NCBI GenBank assembly: GCA_021399395.1
Contig: JAAFKJ010000001.1
Span: 7,357-71,356 of the forward strand
From: Candidatus Heimdallarchaeota archaeon
Lineage (GTDB): Archaea; Asgardarchaeota; Heimdallarchaeia; Heimdallarchaeales; Heimdallarchaeaceae
Length of the DNA: 64,000 nucleotides
Reading direction: 5' to 3'
Within the stretch, counting starts at the first letter, position 1; the number at the start of each line of letters is the position of its first letter. Made by a program: the position numbers and the translations under genes. Positions 3,972 through 64,000 of this stretch are shown here, piece by piece. Under the pieces are notes generated by a model. That model saw only the letters and a list, made by a program, of their open reading frames with translations, was not told the DNA's origin and made no database searches.

Positions 3972-4292
3972 ATGACAACTGCAGGTTTTTACCATTATTA
4001 TTGTGGAATAACAGCACAACCTAATGATGAAGAACAATATGAAGACTTGGGGGAATTTGATTTACACATACAACTTGTTCAGACTGAACTGACTGAAAAA
4101 GAACCTAAAAGACAACCTAGATTTGAAACAGGATATTTTCAAGCTGAATGGATTGAAATAACTTTTATCTTCAGAGCATCTTTTAGAGATAATAATGAAG
4201 AGATTTACAGATACATTGATTTGGTTACAGAAACATTGGAGGAACAATTAAACATTACTATTGTCAATTTCCAAGTAGAGTCAATAATCTAA
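3972..4292 (+). CDS. hypothetical acidic protein (106 aa)
   Basis: Fills the spacer without overlapping neighbours. No motif recognised. Confidence 0.4.
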   Translation: MTTAGFYHYYCGITAQPNDEEQYEDLGEFDLHIQLVQTELTEKEPKRQPRFETGYFQAEWIEITFIFRASFRDNNEEIYRYIDLVTETLEEQLNITIVNFQVESII

Positions 4293-47477: not shown

Positions 47478-48281
47478 TCATTGGGAGTTTTTCTTTTCTC
47501 TCATTTCCAATTTGTATTTTTTCAGGAGATTTTTATATTCTTCTGCTTTTTGTCCCGGATCATCAGAATAAACAATTGGACCTCCAACACAGATCATTGC
47601 ATTGTCATCAAAATTGTAAATTACACTTTTTACGATCAGGTGTTCGCTCCCATAAATAGGTGTTAAGGCAAGGATTTTCGATCCTATTGTTTCTTTCATT
47701 TTCCTAACATCTTTAACATCGATATGCTCTGCATTCCCTATCCAAAATCCATCTACTTGAGCTTTCTTACATCTCTCAGCGACATATAGATAGAGAGGTT
47801 GTTCACTTATGGTAGCAATCTTATAGAACATAGATTCTGGATTCGATAACAAGGTAAGAACAATTATTCCTAGTTTTCTTTGTTGAGCAAGAAGTGATGC
47901 CTTAGCTATATTAGCACTAAAAGGAGAAAATGTAAATGCATCAAAATTCTCTTCTTTGAACCAAAAAATCGCGGAATCATTTGAGGTGTCAATGTCACCT
48001 AGTTTATGGTCAATTATTGAAAGCATATTATTCTGGTGAATCAGAATATTGATTGATCTTATTTCATCAGATGTTAATCCGATTAAATATTGTCTATTAA
48101 GCTTGATTGCACAACTGTAAGGAGCAACATTTTTGATTATCCTTTTCATGAAATTAACTCTATCATCATCTAACATTACAGACCTTGAACGTTGAGATGG
48201 TAGAGCTGGATCTAAACTCACACAGAGCAAACTATCTTTGCTCTTAGAGATTGCAAGATATTGCTGGAGAAACTGTGACAT
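47478..48281 (-). CDS. orotidine-5'-phosphate decarboxylase-like paralog with degenerate C-terminal motifs
   Basis: LCVSLDP, AIKLN and IIDHKLGDID (DxKxxD) are retained. PG[VI]GAQGG reads TPIYGSEH, and VGRxI reads VGGPI. Confidence 0.7.
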   Translation of the reverse strand: MSQFLQQYLAISKSKDSLLCVSLDPALPSQRSRSVMLDDDRVNFMKRIIKNVAPYSCAIKLNRQYLIGLTSDEIRSINILIHQNNMLSIIDHKLGDIDTSNDSAIFWFKEENFDAFTFSPFSANIAKASLLAQQRKLGIIVLTLLSNPESMFYKIATISEQPLYLYVAERCKKAQVDGFWIGNAEHIDVKDVRKMKETIGSKILALTPIYGSEHLIVKSVIYNFDDNAMICVGGPIVYSDDPGQKAEEYKNLLKKYKLEMREKKNSQ

Positions 48282-48351
48282 CTATTAATTCCCATGGAGT
48301 TCATAGGAATCAACGTTTATAATTTTTATTTTTGTTTTCTCCATCATTTTT

Positions 48352-48367
48352 TTGCAGTGAAATGCAA
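48352..48367. promoter_or_regulatory. palindrome TTGCA-gtgaaa-TGCAA in the pyrF-like / pyrBI divergent spacer
   Basis: Read directly. It is the third exact copy of the same half-sites and spacing. Confidence 0.5.
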
Positions 48368-48442
48368 TAAAAACCCCTTTTTTCCTAAGAAATCGCATGA
48401 TTTATAACTGAAAATTTCTTTACTGAATTGGAAGATACGAGA

Positions 48443-49360
48443 ATGAATCTCGAACACTTATTTACAATAAGAAGAATGTCCAAAAATCTTATGGAGGACA
48501 TTTTCGATTTAGCTTCTTCTATAGAAGAAAAACCGGATTCTTTTGCTGAAAAATGCAAAGGAAAAATACTAGCTGCTCTCTTTTTTGAACCAAGTACCAG
48601 AACAAGATTATCCTTTGAAAGCGCTATGTTAAGACTTGGAGGACAAATTCTTGGGTTCTCAAGTGCAAAAGTAAGTAGTTCATCTAAAGGAGAGAGTATC
48701 GCTGATACCTTTAGAATGTTAAATCACTACGCGCACATAGCAGTAATTCGGCATTACATCGAAGGGATTGGAGAGATTGCTAAGGAATTTGCTACAATCC
48801 CAATGATATCTGGAGGTACAGGAACACAAGAACATCCGACTCAAGCACTGCTTGATCTTTATACCATAAGGAAGGAACTAGGAAAGGTAGACGATATAAC
48901 GATTGGAATCATGGGAGATTTACTCTATGGAAGAACAATACCCTCTCTTCTTTTTGGTTTAGCTAAATATGATAATGTGAAAGTTCATCTAATTTCTCCA
49001 CCAGCACTACATATACGTAAAAATGTAAAACTGCGCCTGGAAGAAAATGGTCTTGCTTTCAGAGTAACAGAAAATCACAAAGAAGTAATAGATGAACTAG
49101 ATGTGCTGTATGTGACACGCTTACAGAAAGAACGATTTCCTGACCCAACAGATTATGAGAGACTAAAAGGAGCATATCAGATCCGTAAATCTGATTTGAG
49201 AAAAGCAAAAGATAGCATGATAATTTTGCACCCTCTTCCAAGAGTAAGTGAGATTCCTTTTGAATTGGATGAACTAAAATATGCTAAGTATTTTGACCAA
49301 GCAAAAAATGGAGTATGGGTACGAATGGCTCTAATTCTTAAATATCTAGGAGTGGATTAA
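48443..49360 (+). CDS. pyrB: aspartate carbamoyltransferase catalytic subunit
   Basis: FFEPSTRTRLSFE, HPTQALLD, HPLPR. ATG 48443 is preferred; the track's TTG 48428 is possible. Confidence 0.92.
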   Translation: MNLEHLFTIRRMSKNLMEDIFDLASSIEEKPDSFAEKCKGKILAALFFEPSTRTRLSFESAMLRLGGQILGFSSAKVSSSSKGESIADTFRMLNHYAHIAVIRHYIEGIGEIAKEFATIPMISGGTGTQEHPTQALLDLYTIRKELGKVDDITIGIMGDLLYGRTIPSLLFGLAKYDNVKVHLISPPALHIRKNVKLRLEENGLAFRVTENHKEVIDELDVLYVTRLQKERFPDPTDYERLKGAYQIRKSDLRKAKDSMIILHPLPRVSEIPFELDELKYAKYFDQAKNGVWVRMALILKYLGVD

Positions 49361-49831
49361 ATGAATGAAGATAAGAATAAATTGATTGTAAGAAAAATAG
49401 AGAATGGAACAGTGATTGACAGAATTCCTCCAGGTAAAGCTTTGCGCATACTCGAGGTTTTAGGAATAGATGCAAATTACCCATATACAGTTGCACTCGC
49501 TATACGTGTTCTTTCCAAAAAAATGTCTCTTAAAGATGTAGTAAAAATCAAAGGTAAGGAATTAACAGAAAATGAAGTTCATAAGCTCTCATTTATTGCT
49601 CCAGGAGCATCTGTAAATATCATTCAGAATTTCGAGGTTCAGAGAAAAATACAGTTAGAAATTCCTGACCATGTTGAAGAATTTATCAAGTGTCTTAATC
49701 CAAATTGTGTTTCTAATTCCCATGAACCCATAACCTCATCATTTGATATAATTTCTAAAAAACCTTTGATTCTTAGATGTATCTACTGTGATAGAGTTAT
49801 GGAGGACAAATATCTAAGTGGAAAACTATAG
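49361..49831 (+). CDS. pyrI: aspartate carbamoyltransferase regulatory subunit
   Basis: LIVRKIENGTVIDRIP, C-terminal zinc domain CLNPNC...CIYC. Starts 1 nt after pyrB. Confidence 0.9.
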   Translation: MNEDKNKLIVRKIENGTVIDRIPPGKALRILEVLGIDANYPYTVALAIRVLSKKMSLKDVVKIKGKELTENEVHKLSFIAPGASVNIIQNFEVQRKIQLEIPDHVEEFIKCLNPNCVSNSHEPITSSFDIISKKPLILRCIYCDRVMEDKYLSGKL

Positions 49832-51079
49832 GTAGGTACCAATGTCTTTTCTGTAGAAAAGATTCCCTTTTATTTGTGTAATCTTCCTATCATTTTCAAT
49901 TTTAGCAGATTCCAGGTCATCTCCCTTTGTTACAAGAGCTATAGCTCTACTGGATGTTGTTCTGATGGTGCTTTTATCTCGATAAACTGAAGCATAAAAA
50001 ATATCCTTATTTATGGCTGGATCAACCTCCACCGGTTCCTCTTTTACAGGATTTTGTGGATATCCTTGAGGAACTAGATAAGTACATACGGTAGCTTGTT
50101 TCTGAAACTCTGCTTTTGATAAATTCCCGTCTATTATTTGAGAAGCAATTTGCAGGAAATCAGTTTGTAATAATTTTAGAACATTTAGTGCTTCTGGGTC
50201 ACCAAATCTTACATTATATTCAATTAAAAATATACTATCTTCCGTTTTCATAAATTGTCCATACAGAATCCCTTTGAATTTTTCACCTGTGTTCTGATTT
50301 AATGCTTTCAGGGTTTTCTTTATTATATTCAGCGCATCCTTGTAATCCTTCTTTGAAAGGAATGGTAAATTGTGATCAGGAAGACTATATGATCCCATGC
50401 TTCCAGTCAAGGGTCCTTCCTCATTCTCGTATGCTCTTTTATAATCTCTTACCAAAGGCATAGGTAGAATGTTTGAACCATCTGTAAAAACCTGTAAGGA
50501 GAATTCTTTACCCTTCTTCTTCTCTTCAATCAAGTATTCACCTTCGCGGTTAATTAAGGTTTTAACGTACTTTGTTGCTTCATGAATATTTGTTAAATGA
50601 TCACCATAAACTTTTACACCCTTACCCCCAGTTAATCCATCGGGTTTGATGACAAAATCAGTTCCAAATTCATCTACAGCAACATCAAGATCCTCAACTG
50701 ATTTACCAATCATATAAGATACATTTCCAGGAACATTATAAATGTCCATCAAGTAACGAGTAAAAATCTTGCTACTTTCAATTTTTGCTACATTCTGTCG
50801 AGGACCACATGTTGGAATCCCTAGTTTATCTTCTAGATAATCAGTAATGCCATTTGCAAGAGGATTTTCAGGACCAATGATCGCAAAGTCTACATTTCTG
50901 TATTTCTTTAATTTCTCAAAATTATTTAGATCTCCAATACTAAATTTTTTTGATAAATCTGCAATACCAGGATTCTCTCTAGACATATATGAAAAAAGTT
51001 TGGCATCATTCTCTACAATCTTCATTGCAATGGAGTGTTCTCTTGCCCCATTTCCTACAAGTAATACTTTTAACCCCAT
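49826..51079 (-). CDS. purD: phosphoribosylamine-glycine ligase
   Basis: KVLLVGNGAREHSIA, ATP-grasp VIKPDGLTGGKGV, EYNVRFGDPE. Confidence 0.92.
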   Translation of the reverse strand: MGLKVLLVGNGAREHSIAMKIVENDAKLFSYMSRENPGIADLSKKFSIGDLNNFEKLKKYRNVDFAIIGPENPLANGITDYLEDKLGIPTCGPRQNVAKIESSKIFTRYLMDIYNVPGNVSYMIGKSVEDLDVAVDEFGTDFVIKPDGLTGGKGVKVYGDHLTNIHEATKYVKTLINREGEYLIEEKKKGKEFSLQVFTDGSNILPMPLVRDYKRAYENEEGPLTGSMGSYSLPDHNLPFLSKKDYKDALNIIKKTLKALNQNTGEKFKGILYGQFMKTEDSIFLIEYNVRFGDPEALNVLKLLQTDFLQIASQIIDGNLSKAEFQKQATVCTYLVPQGYPQNPVKEEPVEVDPAINKDIFYASVYRDKSTIRTTSSRAIALVTKGDDLESAKIENDRKITQIKGNLFYRKDIGTYL

Positions 51080-51081
51080 GT

Positions 51082-52479
51082 TTAGACCTCTTCATAGTGG
51101 CTTCTGCTTACTAATTCTCCATTCAAGTATCTTATCCGTATTTCTTGTGCATGTTCAGTAGGATAACTACCTGAAAGACATGCAGTACATAAGTCAGAAA
51201 ATCCGATAGATTTTTTCAAAGATTCAATGTTTTGATAGTATAATTCATCCACATCCAGAATTTGTTTCATTTCTTCAATTTTGTATCCGGAAGCGATCAG
51301 TTCATCATCAGTAGGAAAATCAATTCCATAATAACAGGCAAATCTAATAGCAGGACAAGTGACAGCTAGATAGATCTTTTTTGCACCTAGTTTTCTAAGG
51401 TCCTTAATGATTTTCTGGCTTGTTAATCCTCTTACAATGGAATCATCTACAACAAGGATATTTCTATCTTTAATGAAAGTTGGAGTGTAGAGATATTTTC
51501 TCTTAGCTACGCTTGTTCTCTCTTCCTTACTTTTCATAATGAAAGTTCTCTGAAGATATCTGTTTTTGATAATTGCTTCTCTAACCGGGATGTTGAGAAC
51601 CTCTGATAGACCTTGGCTTGCAGGTCTAGATGTATCTGGAACAGGTACAATGAAATCAATTTCAAGTTCAGATTTCTGAATTCTATGTCCTAACTCTCTA
51701 CCAAGTTCTAACCTTACATCATACACTAACCTCTGTTCAATATATGAACATGGATGTGCAAAATAAACAAACTCAAACATACAATGAGCATGATCACGTT
51801 GAACTATACTGGTATGTTTAACATCGTTTTTATTGATAAAAACTAATTCACCAGGTTTAACATCTTCGAATTTCTCTATTCCTAAATTTTGAAGAACGAC
51901 GCTTTCTGATGTAACTAGAGACACATTTTCAAACTTCCCCATTACTAGAGGTCTCAAACCTCTTGGATCTCTAAATGCAAACAATTGATCATTAAGAATA
52001 CCAATAATTGAATAACTTCCATCTATTGATTCCATAAATGCTCTTACTGCCGCTTCAATATCTCCTTTCATTTTATTAATTTGCATCCCTAAGAAATCAA
52101 CAACAAATCTAGCATCTGATTCGTATGATTGTTGTGTTAGAGAGGAGAGATTGGTAACATTTCCATTATGTACAATCGACAAGCTTCCAGATTCTGTTTC
52201 AAATGAGAATGGTTGTGCATATGTTTCTATATTGGAACTATCGGTTCTTGTACCAAAAGTAGGATATCGTGTTGCACCAAGTAGAGATCTAGTTTCTATT
52301 TTCTCATCTATTTCAAGTAAATCGGGATAACTATCTGATTTAGAAGTAATCAGACTAGCTGTGGATTCATCATACCAAGCTAAACCACTGGCATCCTGAC
52401 CTCTGTGTGTGAGCATCTGAAGCAGTATTCGGCCTTGTCCCAAGGTTGTTAATCCTTTGATTCCTAAAACTCCACACAT
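51082..52479 (-). CDS. purF: amidophosphoribosyltransferase
   Basis: N-terminal MCGVLGI (Ntn Cys), HRGQDASG, PRT loop ILVVDDSIVRGLTS. Confidence 0.93.
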   Translation of the reverse strand: MCGVLGIKGLTTLGQGRILLQMLTHRGQDASGLAWYDESTASLITSKSDSYPDLLEIDEKIETRSLLGATRYPTFGTRTDSSNIETYAQPFSFETESGSLSIVHNGNVTNLSSLTQQSYESDARFVVDFLGMQINKMKGDIEAAVRAFMESIDGSYSIIGILNDQLFAFRDPRGLRPLVMGKFENVSLVTSESVVLQNLGIEKFEDVKPGELVFINKNDVKHTSIVQRDHAHCMFEFVYFAHPCSYIEQRLVYDVRLELGRELGHRIQKSELEIDFIVPVPDTSRPASQGLSEVLNIPVREAIIKNRYLQRTFIMKSKEERTSVAKRKYLYTPTFIKDRNILVVDDSIVRGLTSQKIIKDLRKLGAKKIYLAVTCPAIRFACYYGIDFPTDDELIASGYKIEEMKQILDVDELYYQNIESLKKSIGFSDLCTACLSGSYPTEHAQEIRIRYLNGELVSRSHYEEV

Positions 52480-53085
52480 TTATTCCACTATCCTAGCTTT
52501 ATTACTATATACCTGTATTTTCCCTAAAGAGAAGAGTGAAATTGCTTTAGGTAGTAACACATGTTCTTCTCTCAAAATCCTATCAGCAAGTTCTTTCTCT
52601 GAATCCTCACTGTATACCTCAACACATTTCTGCAGAATAATGGGTCCTTCATCAACTGTTTCAGTTACAATATGAACAGTACAGCCTGAGATTTTCACAC
52701 CAAAGTCTAATGCTTGTTTTTGCGCTTTTAGCCCAGGAAAAGAAGGAAGTAGGGAGGGATGTATATTGATGATTTTGTTCTTATACTTAGATATAAAATT
52801 CGAGGATAAGATCTGCATGAATCCTGCGAGAACTATGAACTCAATTTTATTGTGTTCAAGTATTTCTAAAATTTCGCTCTCTTGTTCACAATAATCAAGA
52901 TTCTTTTTATCGACAATAGCTGTTTGTTTGTGACTTCTTTGAGCAATTTCTAATCCTTTTGCTTCAGGATTGTTTGATAGTACTAAAACAATTTTAGTTT
53001 TCCCCAAGCTCTTCTCTTCTTCTGCTTTCAGAATAGCTTCAAGGTTTGTTCCTCTTCCAGATATTAAAACAGCTGTTCTCATCAT
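52480..53085 (-). CDS. purN: phosphoribosylglycinamide formyltransferase
   Basis: AVLISGRGTNLEAIL, INIHPSLLP, GCTVHIVTETVDEGPII. Confidence 0.9.
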   Translation of the reverse strand: MMRTAVLISGRGTNLEAILKAEEEKSLGKTKIVLVLSNNPEAKGLEIAQRSHKQTAIVDKKNLDYCEQESEILEILEHNKIEFIVLAGFMQILSSNFISKYKNKIINIHPSLLPSFPGLKAQKQALDFGVKISGCTVHIVTETVDEGPIILQKCVEVYSEDSEKELADRILREEHVLLPKAISLFSLGKIQVYSNKARIVE

Positions 53086-53086
53086 C

Positions 53087-54121
53087 TCACCTCGTAAATA
53101 TCACATTATAGTCTTGAATTTTAACAATAGGATCCGTGATAATCTCACCGATTATTAGCGAATCAAAGTGTTTTGAAAGAGTTTCGAGAGCTTTTTGAGC
53201 ATTATTTTTGGAAACAATGACAACGAAGCCTATACCCATGTTGAATATGGAGAACATTTCTTGGTAGTCTATATTCCCTACAGATTGAATCTCATGAAAT
53301 ATTTGTGGGATGTTGCACCATTTGTCGATTTGAAAACCAAGATTTGTTATTCGAAATAGTTTCTTAAAACCTCCACCTGTGATATGAGCAAGTCCATTTA
53401 TTTCGCAATTTTCTGATAAGTCTTTAATTGCTTCAGTGTATATTCTTGTAGGAATTAGCAATTCCTCTCCTACATTTGTTCCCCATGGAAAACTTTCATT
53501 GTATTCATATTTAATAGATAAAACTTTTCGAAGTATAGTAAAACCATTAGAATGAATCCCACTACTTGTTATCCCTATGATTACATCTCCAACTTTTATT
53601 TTAGAACCATCTACAATTTCTTTGATATCAACTATTCCGAGTGCAGTACCAGCAAGATCAAAAGAATTGATGTTAGTTGATAGAAGCTCTGGTATTTTCG
53701 CCAGCTCACCTCCTATCAGAGGTATTTTTGCCAGCTCACAACCTTTCAAAATTCCTTGCATGATACCATCTATAACATCTTCTTGAAAGTCTGAAACTGC
53801 TAGATAATCAACAAAAGCACTTGGTTGAATTCCCATTGCTAGAAGATCATTAACATTCATTGCAACACAATCTATACCCACAGTATCAAACTTTCCAGTT
53901 TTTTGGGCTATAAGCAGTTTAGTTCCAACTCCATCAGTTGCTAAGGCCAGTCCATAATCTCCAAATTTAATCAGATTAGCATAATGACCTTCTTTAGATA
54001 CAACATTTCCAAGTTCAAAGCTACTTTTCACATACTTGTTGATATTCTTCAAAATCCTAGCTTCTTTAGATAAATCTATTCCAGCCTCAGCATAAGTATT
54101 AGGTATATTCTTTTCAGTCAT
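53087..54121 (-). CDS. purM: phosphoribosylformylglycinamidine cyclo-ligase (AIR synthetase)
   Basis: YAEAGIDL, LATDGVGTKL, GIDCVAMNVNDL, SSGIHSNGF, AHITGGG. Confidence 0.93.
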   Translation of the reverse strand: MTEKNIPNTYAEAGIDLSKEARILKNINKYVKSSFELGNVVSKEGHYANLIKFGDYGLALATDGVGTKLLIAQKTGKFDTVGIDCVAMNVNDLLAMGIQPSAFVDYLAVSDFQEDVIDGIMQGILKGCELAKIPLIGGELAKIPELLSTNINSFDLAGTALGIVDIKEIVDGSKIKVGDVIIGITSSGIHSNGFTILRKVLSIKYEYNESFPWGTNVGEELLIPTRIYTEAIKDLSENCEINGLAHITGGGFKKLFRITNLGFQIDKWCNIPQIFHEIQSVGNIDYQEMFSIFNMGIGFVVIVSKNNAQKALETLSKHFDSLIIGEIITDPIVKIQDYNVIFTR

Positions 54122-54140
54122 TGAATTCCATCTCCCATAA

Positions 54141-54539
54141 TTATCTTACATTATTGAAATTGATAAGCTTAAGAATTCGAATCGATAGATATGCAGCATT
54201 TTCTCCGTTATCAATCCCTACTGTTGCAACAGGTACCCCTTTAGGCATCTGAACCATGGACAATAGTGCATCCATCCCATTCAATGCTGCCGACACTGGA
54301 ACCCCTATTACTGGTTTTTTTGTCAAAGATGCTACAACTCCAGGTAGAGCTGCTGCTAAACCAGCTATGCAAACGAAAATATGTGCTTTAGAATTTTCTA
54401 CTTTAACTACTAATTTATCGTGATCTCTATGAGCAGAAATATAGCTCACTTTGAAATCGATTGAGTGTTTTTCCAAAACACTTGTAACTTTTTTAACTAT
54501 TTTTTCATCACTTTTGCTTCCCGCAATTATTTCTATCAT
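54141..54539 (-). CDS. purE: phosphoribosylaminoimidazole carboxylase catalytic subunit / N5-CAIR mutase family (short, 132 aa)
   Basis: [31 protein letters not shown]. No purK in the window. Confidence 0.88.
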
Positions 54540-54540
54540 A

Positions 54541-56718
54541 TTATTCCTCCATAAATCTTGAAATCGCTTTTGACCAGCTTTCCCTTAGTTCTTTCAGATC
54601 AATACTAATCTCATCATCAATTCTAATTTCAGGTGTAGAAATTGTTTTTCCGAGAATCTTATAATCGTCATCTTTCTTCAAATTCTCTTTAATATACTCT
54701 AGTTTTGATTGTGATATTTCTACAACATATCTAGTTGGAGCTTCTGCAAAAATAAACTCTTCAATGGATAGATTCTCCTCTTCTAGAACATTGTTTAAAG
54801 ATAATTCCACACCAATATTTTTATCAAAAGCCATTTCAATGAGAGATGTAATTAGCCCCCCATTTGATATATCGTGGCAACTTAAAATGAGTTTTTCATT
54901 ATTTAATTTCTCGATAATCTGCCTTGATTTCATTTCTTTATCGAAATCATAAGTTGAGATTTTTCCCTCTATTTTACCATGATTATATCTCAGATATTCA
55001 GAACCATTCAAGTTTCCATCATTAAATCCAATCGAGATAATTATGCTATCTTCACTCTGAAAACTGTTCTTGATAAGTTGATTTGGCTCTTCAATTATTC
55101 CAATCATACCTATTGTGGGTGACGGATTAATGCGATCCTTCTTTCCAGCAATTGAAGATTCATTATAGAATGAGACATTCCCACCAACTATCGGTAATGA
55201 AAAATCCTTAGAAAATTGTCCCAATCCTTTTACAGCTTCTACAAATTGCCAATACGAATCTGGGTTTTCTGGATTACCAAAATTTAAGCAATCGACAATA
55301 GCTAATGGTTTGGCACCTACACATACGAGATTCCGCATCGCTTCTGCTGCATTGTTTGCAGTTCCATTGAATGGGTCTAGATAAGTCATGAAAGAATTAC
55401 AATCCAAAGATAGGGCTATGTATTTTTCATTTTCCAATTTTAACACAGCAGAATCAGATCCTGCAGCGATTACTGTCTGAGTCTGTACATGTTGGTCATA
55501 TTGTTGATAAACCCAGGATTTATCTCCAATATTTGGTGAAGACAATAGCTTCAAAATCTCTTCTTTGATATTTGGAGAGATTGGCACAGTGTATGATATC
55601 TCATCAGACACATAATCAGGAATTTCAAGAAGTCTTTCAGGTTCTGGGCAACCTTCAACAACTAGATCTACTGGCAATTCCACGACTTTATTTCCCTCAA
55701 AGAATGCGATATAATGACTATTGTCTGTAACCTCTCCTATTACTGAAGATTGTAAATCATATTTATCCAAGATTTCGCACACTTTTGATAGTTTCTCAGA
55801 ATCTACAATTGCAAGCATTCTTTCCTGAGATTCAGAAACAAGGATTTCCCAAGGTTCCATGTTTTTCGCTCTTAAGGGAATATCTTCTAATCGTATTATT
55901 GCACCAGTTCCTCCTCGAGAACACATTTCAGTTACACCGCAACTCAATCCACCTCCACCTAAATCCTGCAAACCAGCAAGTAGTTCTTCTTCTACTAGCT
56001 CAAGCGTAGCATCAATGAGGATTTTTTCCATTAGTGGATCCCCGATTTGAACTGCAGGTCTATCTTTCTCGCTTTTATCACTTAGATCCTTTGATGCAAA
56101 AGAAACACCATGAATTCCATCTCTTCCAGTTGACGAACCATACAGAACGAGGAAACTTCCAGGTTTTGATGCAATACTTCTAACTACTTTTTTCTTATCT
56201 ATTACTCCCACACACATTGCATTAACTAAACAGTTTTCTTCAAAAGGTTGAGCAAATTCAACTTCTCCTCCTAAAGTTGGTATTCCGCAACAATTTCCAT
56301 AAAATGAAATTCCTCTCACTACATTTTCAAATAGATGTTGAGACCTCTTAGATTCTAATTCTCCAAATCGAATAGAATCTAATAGTGCTACTGGTCGACA
56401 TCCTTGAGAAAGTATATCTCTAATTATTCCACCTACACCTGTTGCAGCACCATCATAAGGTGAAATTGCTGATGGGTGATTGTGACTCTCCAAACCCAAA
56501 CCAACTAAAAATCCATCTCCAATATCAATTAAACCTGCACCTTCACCAATTCCCAGTTCTAAGTATGGAGCTTCTGTATTGAATAAATGAAACCACCTCT
56601 TAGATGATTTATAGGAGCAATGCTCAGACCACATTGCTTCAAATACAGCTATTTCAGCTTCGTTTGGTTCCCTTTCAAGAGAATCTTTAATTGTACCATA
56701 TTCTTCAACAGTTAGCAT
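54541..56718 (-). CDS. purL: phosphoribosylformylglycinamidine synthase subunit II
   Basis: [30 protein letters not shown], 725 aa. Confidence 0.93.
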
Positions 56719-57401
56719 GTCAATTCCTCTTTTAAATTTTCAAAAATTATTTTTCCATCTTCTGATCCTAAATACAGAAAGCTGGCTCTTTCGGGATGGG
56801 GCATCATGCCTAACACATTGCCAGTTTTGTTAACTATCCCAGCTATATTTTCCAATGAACCATTTGGATTGCTTTCCTCATTAATTTCCCCCTGTTCATT
56901 GCAATAACTAAAGGCTATCTGATTATTATTTCCTAGCCTCTGGATGTTCGCTGGTTCGGAATAATAACGGCCTTCATAATGAGCAATTGGGAGCTTGAGT
57001 TTTTTATTTTCCATGCCTTTAAGTAAGGAGCATGAAGTTTGTTCAGTAGAGATATTTACCCACTTGCAGATGAATTTTGTAGAAGTGTTTGTAGTAAGTA
57101 TTCCAGGCAGTAATCCTAATTCACAGAGTATCTGAAAACCATTACAGATACCAATTACAAATTTGCCTGATTCAACATACTCTGGAAGTTTTTTTGCTAT
57201 AGGTGAATGAGATGCTATTGCACCTGGTCTTAGATAATCACCATAAGAGAACCCTCCTGCAATTATCAAAGCATCAACTTCTTCTAGAAGTTCAGAGTTA
57301 TTGGGAAAGATGTACTCATACCGAAGTCCCAGTGAACTTAAAACCCTAGCTACATCTTGTTCGTTATTTGTTCCTGGAAATTTAGTTATACCAATTTTCA
57401 G
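56712..57401 (-). CDS. purQ: phosphoribosylformylglycinamidine synthase subunit I (glutaminase); the start appears to be a non-canonical CTG
   Basis: GICNGFQIL (Cys nucleophile) and MPHPERA. The frame upstream of the track's ATG (57269) stays open and encodes (L)KIGITKFPGTNNEQDVARVL...DALIIAGGFSYGD, the conserved PurQ N-terminus. An in-frame TAA lies directly before CTG 57401..57399, and GGGTGAT lies 4 nt upstream. Confidence 0.85.
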   Translation of the reverse strand: MKIGITKFPGTNNEQDVARVLSSLGLRYEYIFPNNSELLEEVDALIIAGGFSYGDYLRPGAIASHSPIAKKLPEYVESGKFVIGICNGFQILCELGLLPGILTTNTSTKFICKWVNISTEQTSCSLLKGMENKKLKLPIAHYEGRYYSEPANIQRLGNNNQIAFSYCNEQGEINEESNPNGSLENIAGIVNKTGNVLGMMPHPERASFLYLGSEDGKIIFENLKEELTC

Positions 57402-57406
57402 TTATA

Positions 57407-58390
57407 TCACCCTTCGTTAGATGTCTCGAAATATTCCATGGATAACTTGGTTTCTTCAATCAAAGGATTTGAGAGAATTCTGTTGGATATTTCTTGTGTT
57501 TTTTTGTAAAGTGATTCAGAAGGAACGGATGAAAACTTGATACTAGCGTTTTTACCAAGTCTAACTGATTCAATATTCTCATATTCATTCCGTTTTAATG
57601 ACCTAAAAGTAACTTCACCGGCTGGGTCGAGAACTGAATCCTTTAGAGAAATCCGAATATTGGTTTTGGTGTTGAACTCTATATTAGGAAGTTCTGTGAT
57701 TGTTTCCAATCTTTCAAGTATATCCTTATAGTGTTGAATGACATCTCCAAGATCTTTTCGATATCTATCCTTATCCTTAATTTCCCCAGTATTAATTTCC
57801 CATAACCTCATTGTATCAGCTGAAATTTCATCTGCTATAATCAGTTTACCCTCATGACTTCTACCAAATTCAAGCTTAAAATCCACAAGTACAAGTGAGA
57901 TTGACTTGAATATATTTCTTAGAATATGATTCACTGCTAAAGTAACAGCTTTAATTATAGTTGCATCTTCACCCGATAGGTAGTTCATCAAGATTGCTGC
58001 TTCTTCTGTAATTAATGGATCATGTAATTCATCTTCCTTCAAAAAGAACTCAACTAAAGGTTGATCGAAGTTTGTTCCAATCTCAATCCCATATCTTCTA
58101 CAAAAACTTCCAGCAGCTATATTTCTACAAACTATTTCTACGGGAATTATATCGACTTTTTCACAAAGTAAATCTCTACTCGATATACTCTTGAGATAAT
58201 GTGTTTCTATATTATATTCATTCAAAATCTCAAATAGTTTTGCAGAAGTTCGGCAGTTAACTTCACCCTTATTCAGAAGTTCTTCTGTTTTTTCTCCATC
58301 AAATGCAGAAATCGAATCTCTAAAATGGATTTTAACTTCCTTTTCATCCAGAAGTTCTATATCTTTTGCTTTTCCAGAGTATCTCTCCAA
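57407..58390 (-). CDS. purC: SAICAR synthetase fused to a C-terminal PurS domain
   Basis: Residues 1 to ~235: YSGKAKDI, DSISAFDG, LVDFKLEFG (PurC). Residues ~241-327: IRISLKDSVLDPAGE...VRLGKNASIKF...ILSNPLIEE, matching PurS (compare VSLKESVLDPQG...VRIGK...LLANTVIED). TTG start. Confidence 0.88.
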   Translation of the reverse strand: MERYSGKAKDIELLDEKEVKIHFRDSISAFDGEKTEELLNKGEVNCRTSAKLFEILNEYNIETHYLKSISSRDLLCEKVDIIPVEIVCRNIAAGSFCRRYGIEIGTNFDQPLVEFFLKEDELHDPLITEEAAILMNYLSGEDATIIKAVTLAVNHILRNIFKSISLVLVDFKLEFGRSHEGKLIIADEISADTMRLWEINTGEIKDKDRYRKDLGDVIQHYKDILERLETITELPNIEFNTKTNIRISLKDSVLDPAGEVTFRSLKRNEYENIESVRLGKNASIKFSSVPSESLYKKTQEISNRILSNPLIEETKLSMEYFETSNEG

Positions 58391-58403
58391 ATTTTACACC
58401 ACT

Positions 58404-58419
58404 TTGCATTATTTTGCAA
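58404..58419. promoter_or_regulatory. palindrome TTGCA-ttattt-TGCAA (extends to TTTGCA/TGCAAA), just upstream of the purC-purS start
   Basis: Read directly from the sequence. It lies 13 nt from the TTG start of the minus-strand pur operon. Confidence 0.55.
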
Positions 58420-58548
58420 ATTAATGACTTTTTGAAACTGGGAATTTTAGTATGTATAGTTTTTAAACTTTCTGGATAATACTATTAAAAAACCTATAGA
58501 ATCAACTTAAGGGTTTATGAAAATACACAAATATAAAAAGATAAGTTC

Positions 58549-58564
58549 TTGCACAGTAATGCAA
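58549..58564. promoter_or_regulatory. palindrome TTGCA-cagtaa-TGCAA upstream of the HTH-PRTase gene
   Basis: Read directly. It lies about 9 nt downstream of the TATA-like ATATAAAAAG (58531..58540) and about 50 nt upstream of ATG 58614. Confidence 0.55.
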
Positions 58565-58613
58565 AACCTTTTCAATGATATGAAAAGGACTATATTGAAA
58601 AACAAGTGATATT

Positions 58614-59393
58614 ATGTCAAATGCAAGCACACCTGATAGTTATATTGATGCTCAAGAGAAACTAATGACACTTAATCTTCTTCAGATGGCCTTTAAAAAA
58701 TTCGACACTCTTGAAACATGCAGATCATTTCTTCAAGAACATGGGGTTGAGGTTTCTGTTGCAAACCTTTCTAGATATATCAACGGGAAAGCAATTCCAA
58801 AATCAAAACTCAAAAATTCTTTGCTCAAAGTCCTGATAGACAACAAAGAACTTGGTTTAACAATTAAAGAGCTCATAATCAAACACTTAGATATCAAGAC
58901 CGATGAAACAGGTATGATTACAGTAAACAATACCTATTTGCTAAATGACTCAAAAACCTTGAAAGCGATTTTATTTCTAGCAATCCAACAAGGCATTATT
59001 CCAAGAGAGGTTGATAAAGTGATAACTGCTGAAGTTGATGGAATTCCAATTGCAATGACTCTTGCTCATCTTCTTAACATTGATTGTGTTTATGCAAGGA
59101 AGAAGAAACCCATTGGTACCTCTGAGTTTCATAGTGAGGATATTATTTCAGCGAATACTAGTAGAATGGAGACAATCTATTTTCCAGATAAATTCATCAG
59201 AAAGAATGAGAGGGTTATAATCATCGATGACATTATTCGCTCAGGTGCAACACAAACGGCACTAGTTAATCTTGTAAATAAATGTGAAGGAATTCCTCTA
59301 AAAATCATCATACTAACTGGTGTTGGAGGACACTGGGAAAAAACTACTAAATTAAAGTTTACTGATTTCAAAACTCTAGTTACTCTAAAATAA
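58614..59393 (+). CDS. XRE-type HTH domain fused to a type I phosphoribosyltransferase domain; putative nucleotide-biosynthesis regulator
   Basis: N-terminal VSVANLSRYINGKAIPK (Cro/C1-like HTH recognition helix). C-terminal PRPP-binding loop VIIIDDIIRSGATQ. It lies divergent from the pur operon, 16 nt upstream of purP. Confidence 0.7.
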   Translation: MSNASTPDSYIDAQEKLMTLNLLQMAFKKFDTLETCRSFLQEHGVEVSVANLSRYINGKAIPKSKLKNSLLKVLIDNKELGLTIKELIIKHLDIKTDETGMITVNNTYLLNDSKTLKAILFLAIQQGIIPREVDKVITAEVDGIPIAMTLAHLLNIDCVYARKKKPIGTSEFHSEDIISANTSRMETIYFPDKFIRKNERVIIIDDIIRSGATQTALVNLVNKCEGIPLKIIILTGVGGHWEKTTKLKFTDFKTLVTLK

Positions 59394-59409
59394 CGGCAGA
59401 TGGTGTTAT

Positions 59410-60492
59410 ATGATTCAAGAACTGATAAAACAATATGATTATGAGAACATTAGTGTAGGAGTAATTGGATCCCACTCTGCTCTCGATATATTAGATGGTG
59501 CAAAAAAAACAAGATTCAAAACCACAGTAATTTGCGAAAAAGGAAGGGAAGAGCCCTATACAAGATTTGATAGGATCATAGATAATTTGATAATTTTAGA
59601 TAAGTTCTCGGACATATATTCAATCCAAGAGGAATTAAGAGAAGAGAATTGCATTTTCGTACCAAATCGTTCTTTTGCCGTGTATTGTAATACAAACCGA
59701 ATTGAAAAAGAATTTAGAGTGCCTTTGTTCGGTTCAAGAGAACTCCTAAAAGTTGAGGAAAGGGTAGGACTGCACAATTATTATGAAGTACTAGATGCAG
59801 CAAAAATAAAATATCCTAAAACTTTCAAAAATCCAGAGGAAATTGATTGTCCAGTCATATGCAAAATGCCTCATGCTAAACTTGAAGTTGAAAGAGGTTT
59901 CTTTGTAGCAAAAGATAAAGAAAATTTTTTTGAGGAATTCAATAAGCGTGTCGAAAATGGTACAATAAGAAGAGGTGATCTTTCTAAGGCATCGATAGAA
60001 GAATTCATTTCTGGTGTTACATTCAATTTCAATATCTTTTACTCCCCGATATATAATCGAACAGAATTAATTGGGATAGACCGTCGTTTTGTTACAGATC
60101 TAGATGGAATTGTACGTTTGCCTGCGGAACAACAACTTCAACTAGAACTTGAAGAAGAAATGAAAGAGATAGGCAACTATGCTGTTACTTTAAGAGAATC
60201 AATGTTAAGACACGTATTTCCAATGGCAGACGACTTCGTTAAAGCAACAAAGAAACTCTATCCTCCGGGCATTATTGGCCCATTTGCGCTTCAAACCATG
60301 ATAACTAAGGATTACGAATTCATAGTATTCGATGTATCCATGAGAATGGGTGGTGGAACAAATAGTTTCATGGGGACAGGCAGTCAATATTCAGCTGTTT
60401 ATTGGGGAGAACCAATCTCAGCAGGTAAGCGAGTTGGAATGGAAATAAGAAGAGCCGTTGAACAAAACAGATTGCAGTATATTGTAACTTGA
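59410..60492 (+). CDS. PurP-family ATP-grasp protein (5-formaminoimidazole-4-carboxamide ribonucleotide synthetase family), divergent paralog
   Basis: VIGSHSALDILDGAKK, VPLFGSRELL, PPGIIGPFALQ, GGGTNSF. Confidence 0.8.
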   Translation: MIQELIKQYDYENISVGVIGSHSALDILDGAKKTRFKTTVICEKGREEPYTRFDRIIDNLIILDKFSDIYSIQEELREENCIFVPNRSFAVYCNTNRIEKEFRVPLFGSRELLKVEERVGLHNYYEVLDAAKIKYPKTFKNPEEIDCPVICKMPHAKLEVERGFFVAKDKENFFEEFNKRVENGTIRRGDLSKASIEEFISGVTFNFNIFYSPIYNRTELIGIDRRFVTDLDGIVRLPAEQQLQLELEEEMKEIGNYAVTLRESMLRHVFPMADDFVKATKKLYPPGIIGPFALQTMITKDYEFIVFDVSMRMGGGTNSFMGTGSQYSAVYWGEPISAGKRVGMEIRRAVEQNRLQYIVT

Positions 60493-60526
60493 GAGTACTA
60501 ATAATCGTAAAAAGAAAATGAAGAAT

Positions 60527-60576
60527 ATTCAACATTCAAAGGATTACACTGAAGAATTCTTCGAATGATGTTGAAT
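60527..60576. repeat. nested inverted repeat between the two purP paralogs
   Basis: Outer arms ATTCAACAT (60527..60535) and ATGTTGAAT (60568..60576). They enclose the perfect 12-bp palindrome GAAGAATTCTTC (60551..60562). Confidence 0.6.
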
Positions 60577-60616
60577 GTTAGACTAAAGAAATAAAAACAG
60601 TTTCAAAAACTACGAT

Positions 60617-61621
60617 GTGAATAACTTGATAATCTCAACCATAGGAAGTCATTCCGCACTTCAAATATTATTTGGAGCTAAACAAGAGAATTTCAATACC
60701 AAAGTATATTGCTTAAAGGACCGAGATAGTCTTTACCGAAGATATCCCGTCGCAAATGAAATAGTCACACTTGATTCTTATGAAGATCTTCTAGAAATTG
60801 CTGCTGATTCCCAAGAAATTTTTATTCCTCATGGTACTCTGATTGCGGCTCTAGGAGACAAATTAAGGGACATTTCTATACCTATGTTTGGAAATAGAGA
60901 GGGGATGTTGTGGGAGATGAATCGAGCAAAGAATCAAAAACTTCTGGAAACTGCAGGAATTAGAGTTCCTCGAACACTGAAATCTGATGATATCACCGAG
61001 TTAGCGATCGTGAAATTTCCAGGAGCTATGGGTGGTTCAGGGTATTTTGTTTGCTCCTCCTCTGATGAATTCGATACCAAAATTAATGATTTAGTCTCTC
61101 AAAATAAGATCTCAGATTATGACATTAAAAATGCCCAAATTCAAGAGTATGTAACTGGAGTAACTATGTATCCCCATTACTTCTATTCTGGGATCTATGA
61201 AAGAGTTGAGATGCTTGGAATAGATAGGAGATATGAAACCAACGTAGATGCGCTAGGTCGATTATCTCAGAACGATCATCCAGTTGAACCCTCATATAAG
61301 GTAGTTGGGAATCAACCTTTAATTGCAAGAGAATCTCTATTACCACAAATCCTAGAACATGGTGATAAATTGAGGGAAGCTTCAACAAATCTTTTTGCAC
61401 CAGGTTTGATAGGTCCATATTGTATAGAAATGGCCATTACATCAGAAGAGATAGTTGCTTTTGAATTTACTAGCAGAATTGTAGCGGGTACAAGTTTGTA
61501 TGTAAACGGTTCACCTTATTCAAAGATCTTATTCAATGAAGAAATGAGTATGGCTAAGCGTATTGCAAGGGAGATAAAAATGGCAATGGGGCAAAGAAGG
61601 CTGCAGGAGTTCCTTACATAA
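60617..61621 (+). CDS. purP: 5-formaminoimidazole-4-carboxamide-1-(beta)-D-ribofuranosyl 5'-monophosphate synthetase
   Basis: STIGSHSALQILFGAKQ, IPMFGNRE, VKFPGAMGGSGYF, ARESLLPQ, APGLIGPYC, MAKRIAREIKMA. GTG start. Confidence 0.85.
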   Translation: MNNLIISTIGSHSALQILFGAKQENFNTKVYCLKDRDSLYRRYPVANEIVTLDSYEDLLEIAADSQEIFIPHGTLIAALGDKLRDISIPMFGNREGMLWEMNRAKNQKLLETAGIRVPRTLKSDDITELAIVKFPGAMGGSGYFVCSSSDEFDTKINDLVSQNKISDYDIKNAQIQEYVTGVTMYPHYFYSGIYERVEMLGIDRRYETNVDALGRLSQNDHPVEPSYKVVGNQPLIARESLLPQILEHGDKLREASTNLFAPGLIGPYCIEMAITSEEIVAFEFTSRIVAGTSLYVNGSPYSKILFNEEMSMAKRIAREIKMAMGQRRLQEFLT

Positions 61622-61632
61622 AAGGTGATGAA

Positions 61633-63141
61633 ATGGATAAAATCGGAGTATTTGATTTTGGTGGCCAATATTGCCATCTTATTGCTAGAAGGATTAGAGA
61701 TTTAGGTGTTTATGCTGAGATAATCTATGAACCTTCTCAGGAGTACAAAGGTTTCATTTTATCAGGGGGACCGGGTAATATCTCTGAAGAAGAAGCACCC
61801 CAATTACCAGAAGAATTCTTCAATGAGGTGGAAGTACCAGTTCTTGGGATATGTTATGGTCATCAAATGATTGCACAGACTTTTGGAGGAAAAGTTGAAA
61901 GAGGGAGAGAAAGAGAATACGGGAAGAAAACAGCCATTCTTGAAAACTCTTCTTCTTTGTTTAAGGGTTTGAATAAGGAGGAACAAGTCTGGATGTCACA
62001 TTATGATCAAGTTACGATTCTACCTGATGATTTCGATGTCATTGGTTCAACTGACATCTGTGGAATAGCAGCATATCAAAACATCCACAAAAATATTTTT
62101 GGGGTCCAATTTCATCCAGAAGTCATTCACACTATAAATGGCACTAAAATTCTTAAAAACTTTTTAGATATTATTGGATGTAAGAGAGAATGGAAACTAA
62201 GTCAATGGGTGGAAAAGAAAATACACGAACTGCAAACAGAGATAGGTTCTAACAGAGTAATCATGGCAGTTAGTGGAGGAGTAGATAGTACAGTAGCTGC
62301 TGCACTTCTAACTAAAGCTAAGATAAACGCTCATTTCATACATGTAGACACTGGTCTCATGAGATTGAATGAATCAGAGGAAGTAGCAAAAATTTTCGAG
62401 GATTTGGGCACGGAAAACCTTCATATTGTAGATGCTAAAAAAAGATTTTTTAAGAGATTAGAAGATATCTCTGATCCAGAATTAAAGCGGAAGATAATTG
62501 GAAACCTCTTTATCGATATTTTTGAAGAAGAATCTGATAGATTAGACAATTTTGATTTCTTAGGACAAGGAACAATATATCCAGATAGAATAGAAAGCGC
62601 TCAACCAAGTAAACATGCAAGTGTAATCAAAACCCACCATAATGTTGGTGGTCTTCCTGAAAGAATGAAGTTAAAATTAATTGAGCCTCTCAATGAGCTT
62701 TACAAGGATGAAGTCAGAAAAATAGGCGAGATGTTAGGTCTTCCAAAGAGATACATTGATAGACACCCATTCCCAGGTCCGGCTCTTGCAATCAGGATCT
62801 TAGGCATAGTTACTGAAGAGAGAGTGGATATATTAAGAAAAGCTGATGCGATTGTTACACAAATCATAGAGAATAATGGTATTTATGATTCTCTTTGGCA
62901 AGTTTTTCCTGCACTCATCCCTGTTAAATCTGTAGGTGTGATGGGAGATAAAAGAACATATGAATATATCTTAACCATTAGAGCTGTTGAATCAGTAGAC
63001 GCGATGACAGCTGATTGGGCAAGATTAGATTATGATGTTTTAGAAGAAATATCCACAAAGATCATCAATAAAGTAAATGGTGTGAATAGAGTCCTATATG
63101 ATATCACCAGCAAACCCCCAGGTACAATTGAATATGAATAA
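61633..63141 (+). CDS. guaA: GMP synthase (glutamine-hydrolysing), with GATase and ATP-pyrophosphatase domains fused
   Basis: GICYGHQ, FHPEV, SGGVDSTV (PP-loop), C-terminal KPPGTIEYE. ATG is preceded by AGGTGATG. Confidence 0.93.
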   Translation: MDKIGVFDFGGQYCHLIARRIRDLGVYAEIIYEPSQEYKGFILSGGPGNISEEEAPQLPEEFFNEVEVPVLGICYGHQMIAQTFGGKVERGREREYGKKTAILENSSSLFKGLNKEEQVWMSHYDQVTILPDDFDVIGSTDICGIAAYQNIHKNIFGVQFHPEVIHTINGTKILKNFLDIIGCKREWKLSQWVEKKIHELQTEIGSNRVIMAVSGGVDSTVAAALLTKAKINAHFIHVDTGLMRLNESEEVAKIFEDLGTENLHIVDAKKRFFKRLEDISDPELKRKIIGNLFIDIFEEESDRLDNFDFLGQGTIYPDRIESAQPSKHASVIKTHHNVGGLPERMKLKLIEPLNELYKDEVRKIGEMLGLPKRYIDRHPFPGPALAIRILGIVTEERVDILRKADAIVTQIIENNGIYDSLWQVFPALIPVKSVGVMGDKRTYEYILTIRAVESVDAMTADWARLDYDVLEEISTKIINKVNGVNRVLYDITSKPPGTIEYE

Positions 63142-63160
63142 AATGATAAAGGTTAGAAAA

Positions 63161-63769
63161 ATGAAAGCAAATTTGCAAGAACTGACAAAGCAGATTATTA
63201 AGCAGGGAATTTTGAAGTTTGGCGATTTTACCTTGAAATCAGGTAAAAAATCCTGGTTCTATCTCGATTTAAGATTGATATCATCTTTTCCAGATACTTT
63301 TAATTTCGTAATCAAATGTTATAAAAAGAAATTAAAAGAAATAGGTAAATATGACGCTGTAGTAGGTGTAGCTGTAGCTGGTGTGCCTTTTTCTGCTGTT
63401 TTGGGTTACACTTTGAACATTCCCTCCTTAATTATAAGGACGCAAAAAAAAGATCATGGTTTGAGGAATAAAATTGAGGGGTTTCTTCCAGAAAAATCAA
63501 CTATTGTTCTCATAGATGATTTAATAACGACAGGTTCTAGCAAAATTCCTGGCATACTTGCATTACGTGAAATGGGATATGTTGTAAAAGATATGTTGGT
63601 TTTAGTTGACCGAAGCCAAGGTCATAGTGGTCAAATTGATCAACTAGGAGTAAAACTTCATTCATTTGCTTCAATTGAGCAGATATTTACAGAAAGCCTA
63701 CATCTTGATGATGACATTTTAGATGAGAAAACAAGAGAAATTATAGCTAAAAATCTTAGAACCGATTAA
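63161..63769 (+). CDS. pyrE: orotate phosphoribosyltransferase
   Basis: GDFTLKSGKKSWFYLDLR, PRT loop IVLIDDLITTGSS. Start is ATG 63161 or 63143; the track's 63098 overlaps guaA. Confidence 0.88.
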   Translation: MKANLQELTKQIIKQGILKFGDFTLKSGKKSWFYLDLRLISSFPDTFNFVIKCYKKKLKEIGKYDAVVGVAVAGVPFSAVLGYTLNIPSLIIRTQKKDHGLRNKIEGFLPEKSTIVLIDDLITTGSSKIPGILALREMGYVVKDMLVLVDRSQGHSGQIDQLGVKLHSFASIEQIFTESLHLDDDILDEKTREIIAKNLRTD

Positions 63770-63795
63770 GCAAGATACCTTCATGAACAAATCCG

Positions 63796-64000
63796 TTATT
63801 CATTGAACTGTTTTTGGAATTGCGCTGCAATTTCAGCTGGATTTTCTGAATAGATAATAGATCTTCCAACATTTATCATTAAGTTTCTATTGAATCTTCT
63901 TATGATATCGTTCGCATCCCCACCTTGAGCACCAACTCCGGGAACAAGTAAGAGCATATTTTCATCTATCGAATTTTTAATTAGTTCTAAATTTTCTAAT
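63796..64000 (-). CDS. pyrF: orotidine-5'-phosphate decarboxylase, C-terminal fragment (N-terminus beyond the window edge)
   Basis: Absent from the ORF track. My minus-strand translation gives ...MLLLVPGVGAQGGDANDII...LMINVGRSIIYSENPAEIAAQFQKQFNE*, with canonical PGVGAQGG and VGRSI motifs. Stop at 63796..63798. Confidence 0.8.
   Translation of the reverse strand, partial: LENLELIKNSIDENMLLLVPGVGAQGGDANDIIRRFNRNLMINVGRSIIYSENPAEIAAQFQKQFNE

Follow-up and report, generated by a model that had tools for sequence, protein, structure and literature searches.

The window, the whole 64,000-nucleotide stretch analysed here, comes from a metagenome-assembled genome of 2.8 Mb with 34% GC. Its proteins have homologues labelled Candidatus Heimdallarchaeaceae, a family that includes Ca. 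Heimdallarchaeum aukensis and Ca. H. endolithica. Positions 47478-64000 hold a nucleotide-synthesis cluster. This opens with a minus-strand OMPDC-like gene, followed by pyrB and pyrI on the plus strand and by a minus-strand pur operon that ends, in map order, with purL, purQ and purC::purS. Beyond these are a plus-strand gene for a 259-aa PRT-domain protein, two purP-type genes, guaA and an ORF taken as pyrE. A minus-strand pyrD-pyrK-pyrC-pyrF operon lies directly past the window end (G000:C174:71152-75032). The palindrome described below is absent from the region upstream of that operon. Hence, pyrBI are the sole pyr genes with a site. Coordinates are listed in Table 1.

Table 1. Features of the nucleotide-synthesis cluster, in map order, with the basis of each assignment.
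Feature	Coordinates	Strand	Basis
OMPDC-like paralogue, divergent from pyrB	47478..48281	-	Pfam OMPdecase 6.5e-15
OMPDC-like gene TATA box (inferred), TTTATAAT, minus-strand reading ATTATAAA	48316..48323	-	sequence; genome-wide TATA position
pyr palindrome, TTGCAGTGAAATGCAA	48352..48367	.	read from sequence
pyrB TATA box (inferred), TTTATAAC	48401..48408	+	invariant block in spacer alignment; genome-wide TATA position
pyrB	48443..49360	+	NCBIfam asp_carb_tr 9.7e-104; start from spacer alignment
pyrI	49361-49831	+	Pfam PyrI and PyrI_C
purC::purS, first gene of minus-strand pur operon	57407..58390	-	Pfam SAICAR_synt 3e-72, PurS 1e-15
pur site A, TTGCATTATTTTGCAA	58404..58419	.	exact motif; top PWM match in genome, 23.9 bits
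pur site B, TTGCACAGTAATGCAA	58549..58564	.	exact motif; 49 nt upstream of HTH-PRT gene ATG
HTH-PRT gene, candidate binding protein, 259 aa	58614..59393	+	Pfam Pribosyltran 2.4e-9; structure model; family profile
Fourth site, TTGCAGTATATTGTAA, one mismatch	60472..60487	.	PWM score 16.0 bits

A palindromic motif recurs in the cluster

We focused on a palindrome, TTGCA-GTGAAA-TGCAA, in the spacer between the OMPDC-like gene and pyrB. The initial annotation had described a site at this place, and it is present exactly there. We refer to it as the pyr palindrome. With its flanks it reads TTTGCA-N6-TGCAAT, which agrees with 17 of the 18 bases of an extended consensus, TTTGCA-N6-TGCAAA. The window contains three exact copies of TTGCA-N6-TGCAA where 0.14 are expected, and none of 100 shuffled sequences gave three. 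All are in spacers between nucleotide genes. The other two, pur sites A and B, sit between purC::purS and the gene for the 259-aa protein. As the earlier reading had it, the half-sites and spacing of the pyr palindrome match those of the two pur copies.

A genome-wide motif search had been put forward as a check on this site. By that measure the exact motif is at chance level. There are six copies in the whole 2.8 Mb genome, against 4.4 (first-order Markov) or 6.3 (half-site counts) expected, and so no enrichment. The reversed pattern is not a fair control for this count, because it holds CG dinucleotides. Three of the six copies are packed into about 370 bp of nucleotide-gene promoter DNA. 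Of the others, one is inside an ORF of the MMPL family, one falls in a gene-poor gap and the last is where an aminotransferase gene has its 3' end. Since the genome-wide count is not enriched, the case for the pyr palindrome rests on position and conservation. Separately, we observed a 56-aa minus-strand ORF (MMIVQSKIRDYVKELGDYKVGG...; G000:C66:16060-16230) about 260 nt from another exact copy. By eye, its product resembles a small histone-fold or DUF1931-type protein.

The same motif is found at purine genes

Pur site A is 14 nt upstream of the purC::purS start (10-15 nt among loci). About 39 nt upstream of site A lies a ATTAATAAA element (TTTATTAAT when read in the direction of purC) that is strongly conserved. 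We infer that this element is the purC TATA box. Site A would hence lie within the purC leader, a repressor-type position, and it appears to control the pur operon led by purC::purS. The position of site B relative to the TATA box of the downstream HTH-PRT gene is inconsistent between lineages. A fourth site, with one mismatch, lies at the last codons of purP1, upstream of purP2-guaA. Exact sites occur at the same purP1/purP2 junction in Ca. Heimdallarchaeum aukensis and Ca. H. endolithica.

Two further observations concern the purP1-purP2 spacer. In Ca. H. aukensis the exact site in this spacer is followed, about 113 nt on, by another with one mismatch, TTGCAAAATGTTGTAA (locus L047, 4041-4056 and about 4153-4168), so that the purP2-guaA promoter there also has a site pair. 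In the window, downstream of the fourth site, positions 60527-60577 contain an inverted repeat with perfectly matching 9-bp arms, ATTCAACAT and ATGTTGAAT, separated by about 33 nt. This could be a terminator or an attenuator-like hairpin.

Site pairs are a recurrent feature upstream of the HTH-PRT gene. We examined 30 loci that contain an orthologue of the 259-aa protein. In 20 of them, which together cover all five genera of the family, we found two sites 141-164 bp apart, neither with more than one mismatch. The pairs flank purC and the HTH-PRT gene, and their N6 spacers vary among the 20 loci. The conserved motif is TTRCA-N6-TGYAA; an extra T or A on each flank of the pur sites gives the consensus TTTGCA-N6-TGCAAA.

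A position weight matrix (PWM) was built solely from the pur sites of other genomes, with the window's own genome left out. In that genome, site A ranks first and the pyr palindrome seventh (17.1 bits). Eighteen matches reach at least 14 bits, five of them on the contig with the pur/pyr cluster. These five are the four promoter or junction sites and one match inside an unrelated ORF about 19 kb downstream of the HTH-PRT gene, which we treated as chance. A wider regulon was likewise considered and set aside. In the same genome and its relatives, the other exact or high-scoring sites adjoin unrelated genes (AFOR, a zinc-ribbon protein, L7Ae/L30e, methyltransferases, MMPL, an aminotransferase, pyruvate kinase and FMN reductases) and were treated as chance. 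One match of 18.3 bits, outside the window, is between two divergent paralogous genes (G000:C127:7540). Both paralogues have a weak, sub-threshold ATP-cone match and a P-loop kinase-like domain. The same-contig intra-ORF site aside, this is the only high-scoring off-cluster site with a possible nucleotide link.

The pyrB site is conserved and helically phased within one genus

Two TATA-like elements, claimed at about 48315 and about 48399, were located on either side of the pyr palindrome (Table 1). The inferred pyrB TATA box follows the palindrome after 33 nt and precedes the pyrB ATG by 42 nt. The inferred TATA box of the OMPDC-like gene is 28 nt from the palindrome and also 42 nt before its start codon. 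Both assignments are sequence-based. That for pyrB draws on conservation and on genome-wide TATA position: TTTATA[AT] peaks at -45 to -26 from start codons, and the pyrB element is at -42. The pyrB start had been given as either 48428 or 48443. Alignment with nine relatives selects the ATG at 48443 and not the TTG at 48428 called by the ORF finder, and a purine-rich stretch, GGAAG/GGAAAAAAGG, precedes the conserved ATG. Together, pyrB and pyrI (48443..49831) are probably an operon regulated via the pyr palindrome. The divergent OMPDC-like gene, which scores below all NCBIfam pyrF cut-offs, may be co-regulated with pyrBI.

We compared pyrB loci from the 16 family genomes, out of 31, with a strong pyrB match. 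Ten belong to the same genus as the window. Eight of these ten have a site with at most one mismatch before pyrB, 69-76 nt from the start codon. The remaining two (G010 and G011) have TTACT-N6-TGCAA at the same place, with two mismatches and one perfect half-site. A MAFFT alignment of the ten spacers has a mean column identity of 57%. Invariant columns fall in the left half-site (TTT-C), the right half-site (TGCAA), the TATA box (TTTATAA) and the ATG. Given a background density of 4.2e-5 per nt for sites with at most one mismatch, such conservation has a chance probability of 2e-6 at most, even with no more than four lineages taken as independent.

The alignment contains a sole large indel between the palindrome and the pyrB TATA box, and this is 10 nt long. 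Hence, palindrome and TATA box are 33 nt apart in two of the ten, the window and G008, and 23 nt apart in the remaining eight. The two spacings differ by one helical turn, which keeps the palindrome on the same DNA face relative to the TATA box. Spacing to the pyrB TATA box is kept with either type of upstream neighbour, a divergent OMPDC-like gene or a co-directional RING-type one. Conversely, the distance to the OMPDC-like TATA box varies, from 28 nt in the window to about 44 nt in relatives. The palindrome thus belongs to the pyrB promoter. The initial annotation had left its role ambiguous between an operator and an upstream activating site. That ambiguity is now narrowed, as both TATA boxes have the palindrome on their upstream side. 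In this position it is not an operator of the classical kind, which would overlap a TATA box or a transcription start.

In the four other genera of the family, where pyrB is far from the HTH-PRT gene, no site with at most one mismatch was found before pyrB. A two-mismatch sequence, TTACA...TGAAA, before pyrB in one of the genera (g5) was judged unconvincing. Absence from orthologous pyrB promoters had been named as evidence against the site. In the event, it is present in its own genus, where pyrBI adjoins the pur operon, and absent from the other four. The broader claim, of a cis-element shared by purine and pyrimidine genes, holds in so far as a common motif is conserved at both promoters. 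Since the pyrB site is present in one genus only, the coupling of the two pathways is genus-level and not family-wide. We consider the pyr palindrome very likely to be a functional cis-element.

Site pairs co-occur with the target operon

Across the 31 genomes, purC::purS is present in 19, and every one of those 19 has the site pair. The 12 genomes without purC::purS also lack a strong pyrB match (0/12). Purine auxotrophy is possible in these lineages. In eight of the 12, the sequence upstream of the HTH-PRT gene is readable. In seven of these the pair is absent, although one of the seven (G022) keeps a half-site. G029 is the exception: purC::purS is gone, yet two palindromes are kept upstream of the HTH-PRT gene. 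The pair is therefore kept with purC::purS and mostly lost without it, so the motif tracks its target operons.

The OMPDC-like gene is directly divergent to the HTH-PRT gene in all annotated loci without purC::purS. There are five such loci, including L003 (G029), L004 (G022), L019 (G016) and L027 (G007). They look as if the block of about 10 kb between the pyr and pur palindromes, containing pyrBI and the pur operon, had been deleted.

Genomes without the pur operon and pyrB still have the HTH-PRT gene, with its HTH unchanged, flanked by pyrC or by pyrK and pyrD. The HTH does not co-vary with site presence, being as well conserved where sites are missing as where they are kept. Survival of the gene in this form implies other targets, or another role, for the HTH-PRT protein. 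Of the points against this protein as the binder, we consider this the weightiest.

The HTH-PRT protein is a candidate binder

The 259-aa protein consists of a probable N-terminal lambda/XRE-like HTH (residues 6-89, approximately) and a type I phosphoribosyltransferase domain (residues 93-259) that keeps the PRPP-loop motif VIIIDDIIRSGAT. A structure model (pLDDT 92) has a helical N-terminal domain, at residues 6-89, and a PRT fold. Among all PDB sequences, the best match to the family profile is B. subtilis PurR (1o57/1p4a; 1.9e-19), over residues 104-232, in the PRT domain only. Full-length fold alignment with PurR gives an rmsd of about 13 A. The protein scores below all NCBIfam enzyme cut-offs, the best being adenine PRTase PRK08558/NF006328 (129.7 vs 184 bits). 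TIGR01743 gave 58.7 bits against a cut-off of 258.7, for the PRT part only. The GfcR model NF045507 gave 17.9 bits against a cut-off of 300.

The nature of the N-terminal domain was assessed in several ways. A Pfam search with residues 1-120 gave no match, and the PuR_N winged helix (PF09182) was not found. HTH_3 is matched by four of 36 family members (best 2.4e-7), which are distant but full-length homologues of the protein; the protein encoded here is itself unmatched. Briefly, the domain has an invariant R54-Y55-x2-G58-x3-P62 within a conserved ...LSRYINGKxxP stretch. As a sequence pattern, this stretch, with R54, Y55, G58 and P62, is typical of Cro/CI-type HTH domains. In a separate model of residues 1-95 (pLDDT 88.6), the top fold matches are nearly all HTH domains of XRE, lambda, EspR or MqsA type, at non-significant scores (all E >=0.76).

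The motif itself is a dyad. Its half-site centres are 11 bp apart, or one helical turn, and the spacer centre favours A/T. With this spacing, two HTH motifs of the lambda/XRE type could sit in consecutive major grooves, and a dimer of such domains recognises dyads spaced in this way. Type I PRT domains, including that of PurR, dimerise. On these grounds, we think it likely that the HTH-PRT protein would bind the pyr palindrome.

The family with this HTH and PRT arrangement is common in archaea (Bathyarchaeia, Thermococci, Baldr-, Odin-, Hel-, Jord-, Njord-, Frey- and Hodarchaeota, and Nitrososphaeria). Neither pur nor pyr genes adjoin the distant homologues in Bathyarchaeia, Thermococci and other Asgard lineages, and the palindrome is missing there too. 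Where a source names the family, the label is adenine phosphoribosyltransferase or phosphoribosyltransferase family protein. The first of these may be wrong, at least for the Heimdall members.

Discussion

With moderate confidence, we favour a model in which the pyr palindrome is a conserved site in the pyrBI promoter, putatively bound by an HTH-PRT dimer, from which pyrBI would be activated. A dimer of this protein would be the most likely binder of all the palindromes. The predicted regulon is small and local, with four sites: at pyrB, in the purC leader, upstream of the HTH-PRT gene and at the purP1/purP2 junction. As in Bacillus PurR, the signal sensed by the PRT domain is most likely PRPP or a related ligand of phosphoribosyl or nucleotide type. 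Bound at the purC leader site, downstream of the inferred TATA box, the protein would repress. Bound at the phased site upstream of the pyrB TATA box, it would contact TBP/TFB and so stimulate pyrBI transcription. A single signal would thereby coordinate the synthesis of purines and pyrimidines, possibly in reciprocal fashion.

The pyr palindrome is almost equidistant from the two divergent TATA boxes. Its position upstream of both favours activation. In archaea, sites upstream of BRE/TATA go with activation and those downstream with repression (PMC4158304). It is because of this position rule (PMC4158304) and the GfcR precedent (PMC10838023) that we propose activation at pyrB and repression at purC. 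Given binding, activation from the pyr palindrome strikes us as roughly an even call. The full dual mode is tentative: here, the bound regulator would block the purine operon from the leader and would activate pyrBI from the phased upstream site.

The foremost alternative has the same site and the same binder acting by repression. Nucleation at the palindrome would be followed by spreading or looping over the pyrB and OMPDC-like TATA boxes, and purine and pyrimidine genes would go off together at low effector. Upstream position is no proof of activation, since PurR represses from upstream sites by spreading. Thus, the PurBoxes of B. subtilis are directly upstream of -35, yet PurR, whose protection of DNA reaches well past them, acts as a repressor (PMC8789054). 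In E. coli, pyrBI, carAB, pyrC and pyrD are repressed by PurR along with pur genes (PMC3159470), and the purC site described here is in a repressor position. The arrangement at pyrB fits repression less well. Spreading needs no conservation of helical phase, yet the 23 and 33 nt spacings preserve it. The archaeal position rule favours activation from upstream sites (PMC4158304). The pyrB spacer has a single site, with no second box for looping within it. We consider repression rather unlikely.

A different transcription factor could occupy a genuine palindrome, with the HTH-PRT protein being an enzyme or the regulator of something else. The persistence of the gene, with an identical HTH, in genomes without sites would fit this. 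So would distant homologues that are unlinked to pur genes, databases that call the family adenine phosphoribosyltransferase, and an intact PRPP motif with which catalysis may be possible. Set against these, HTH-PRT is the only DNA-binding-type gene that consistently adjoins the sites, one of which is directly upstream of it in all five genera. Its product falls short of every NCBIfam enzyme cut-off, including the nearest (129.7 vs 184 bits), and has a PRT domain closest to that of PurR. A different binder is thus improbable in our estimation. Least probable by far is a chance palindrome, or an RNA or DNA hairpin with no protein-binding role: although the genome-wide count equals the chance expectation and motif and surrounding intergenic DNA are both AT-rich, a position kept across diverged spacers speaks against chance (probability <=2e-6), and the RNA hairpin was rejected given a weak stem (-5.8 kcal/mol, z -1.3 to -1.9), a common variant, TTACA...TGCAA, that breaks the stem with no compensating change, and a position upstream of both inferred promoters, where the site is probably not transcribed.

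The predicted system works like a PurR regulon, yet it lies outside the Bacillus PurR, E. coli PurR and GfcR families. PurR of Bacillus subtilis and Lactococcus lactis (PDB 1O57, 1P4A, 7RMW) likewise has a DNA-binding domain fused to a non-catalytic-looking type I PRT. Further points of likeness are a regulator gene beside pur genes, a site before the regulator gene and paired sites at a pur promoter. The Lactococcus homologue activates rather than represses. For Bacillus PurR, PRPP is the effector (inducer), and the operator consists of two 14-bp PurBoxes with a central CGAA, 16-17 bp apart (PMC8789054). By contrast, the operator here is a 16-18 bp palindrome, TTTGCA-N6-TGCAAA, and the N-terminal domain is probably a lambda/XRE-like HTH in place of the PuR_N winged helix. 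These differences in operator and N-terminal domain are our reason for placing the system outside the Bacillus PurR family. In addition, the host has an archaeal TBP/TFB promoter and the predicted regulon takes in pyrBI.

The logic is the same in E. coli, where one purine-responsive PurR acts over pur and pyr genes. To our knowledge, every known case of E. coli PurR control is repression. Its operator is a 16-bp palindrome, and its targets are the pur genes together with pyrBI and the other pyr and car genes named above (PMC3159470). E. coli PurR belongs to an unrelated protein family (LacI/GalR, with hypoxanthine or guanine as corepressor) and has another operator sequence.

We know of only one characterised archaeal regulator with an HTH and a PRT domain, GfcR. 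In Haloferax volcanii, this HTH-PRT protein binds promoters directly and is a proven activator, and its PRPP-like pocket takes sugar phosphates (PMC10838023). GfcR is PyrE-like and serves sugar catabolism, whereas the protein described here is nearer the APRT/PurR type and is encoded among nucleotide genes. TrmBL1/Tgr, Ptr2 and TFB-RF1 are archaeal dual-function regulators whose sign is set by site position (PMC4158304). The pyrB and purC sites resemble this arrangement, being upstream and downstream, respectively, of their inferred TATA boxes. Those regulators belong to other families and recognise other motifs, and the promoters and signs proposed here are inferred from sequence alone. Our literature search found no description of the motif, or of a nucleotide-pathway regulator of such type in archaea. 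New here are the geometry of the pyrB site, its restriction to one genus and the loss of sites alongside their target operons.

These sequences describe a compact candidate regulator-operator system: one sensor protein, one 16-18 bp motif and four target promoters with geometries that predict opposite signs. They also suggest that archaea came to use a PRT domain as the sensor in nucleotide control in combination with another type of DNA-binding domain. With the pyrB site, a predicted regulon of purine genes reaches as far as the committed step in making pyrimidines. If the dual mode is true, the system would be a transcriptional switch that balances purines and pyrimidines, like the control of ATCase by ATP and CTP, on an archaeal TBP/TFB promoter. 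Heimdallarchaeia would then also have their first defined regulator-operator pair.
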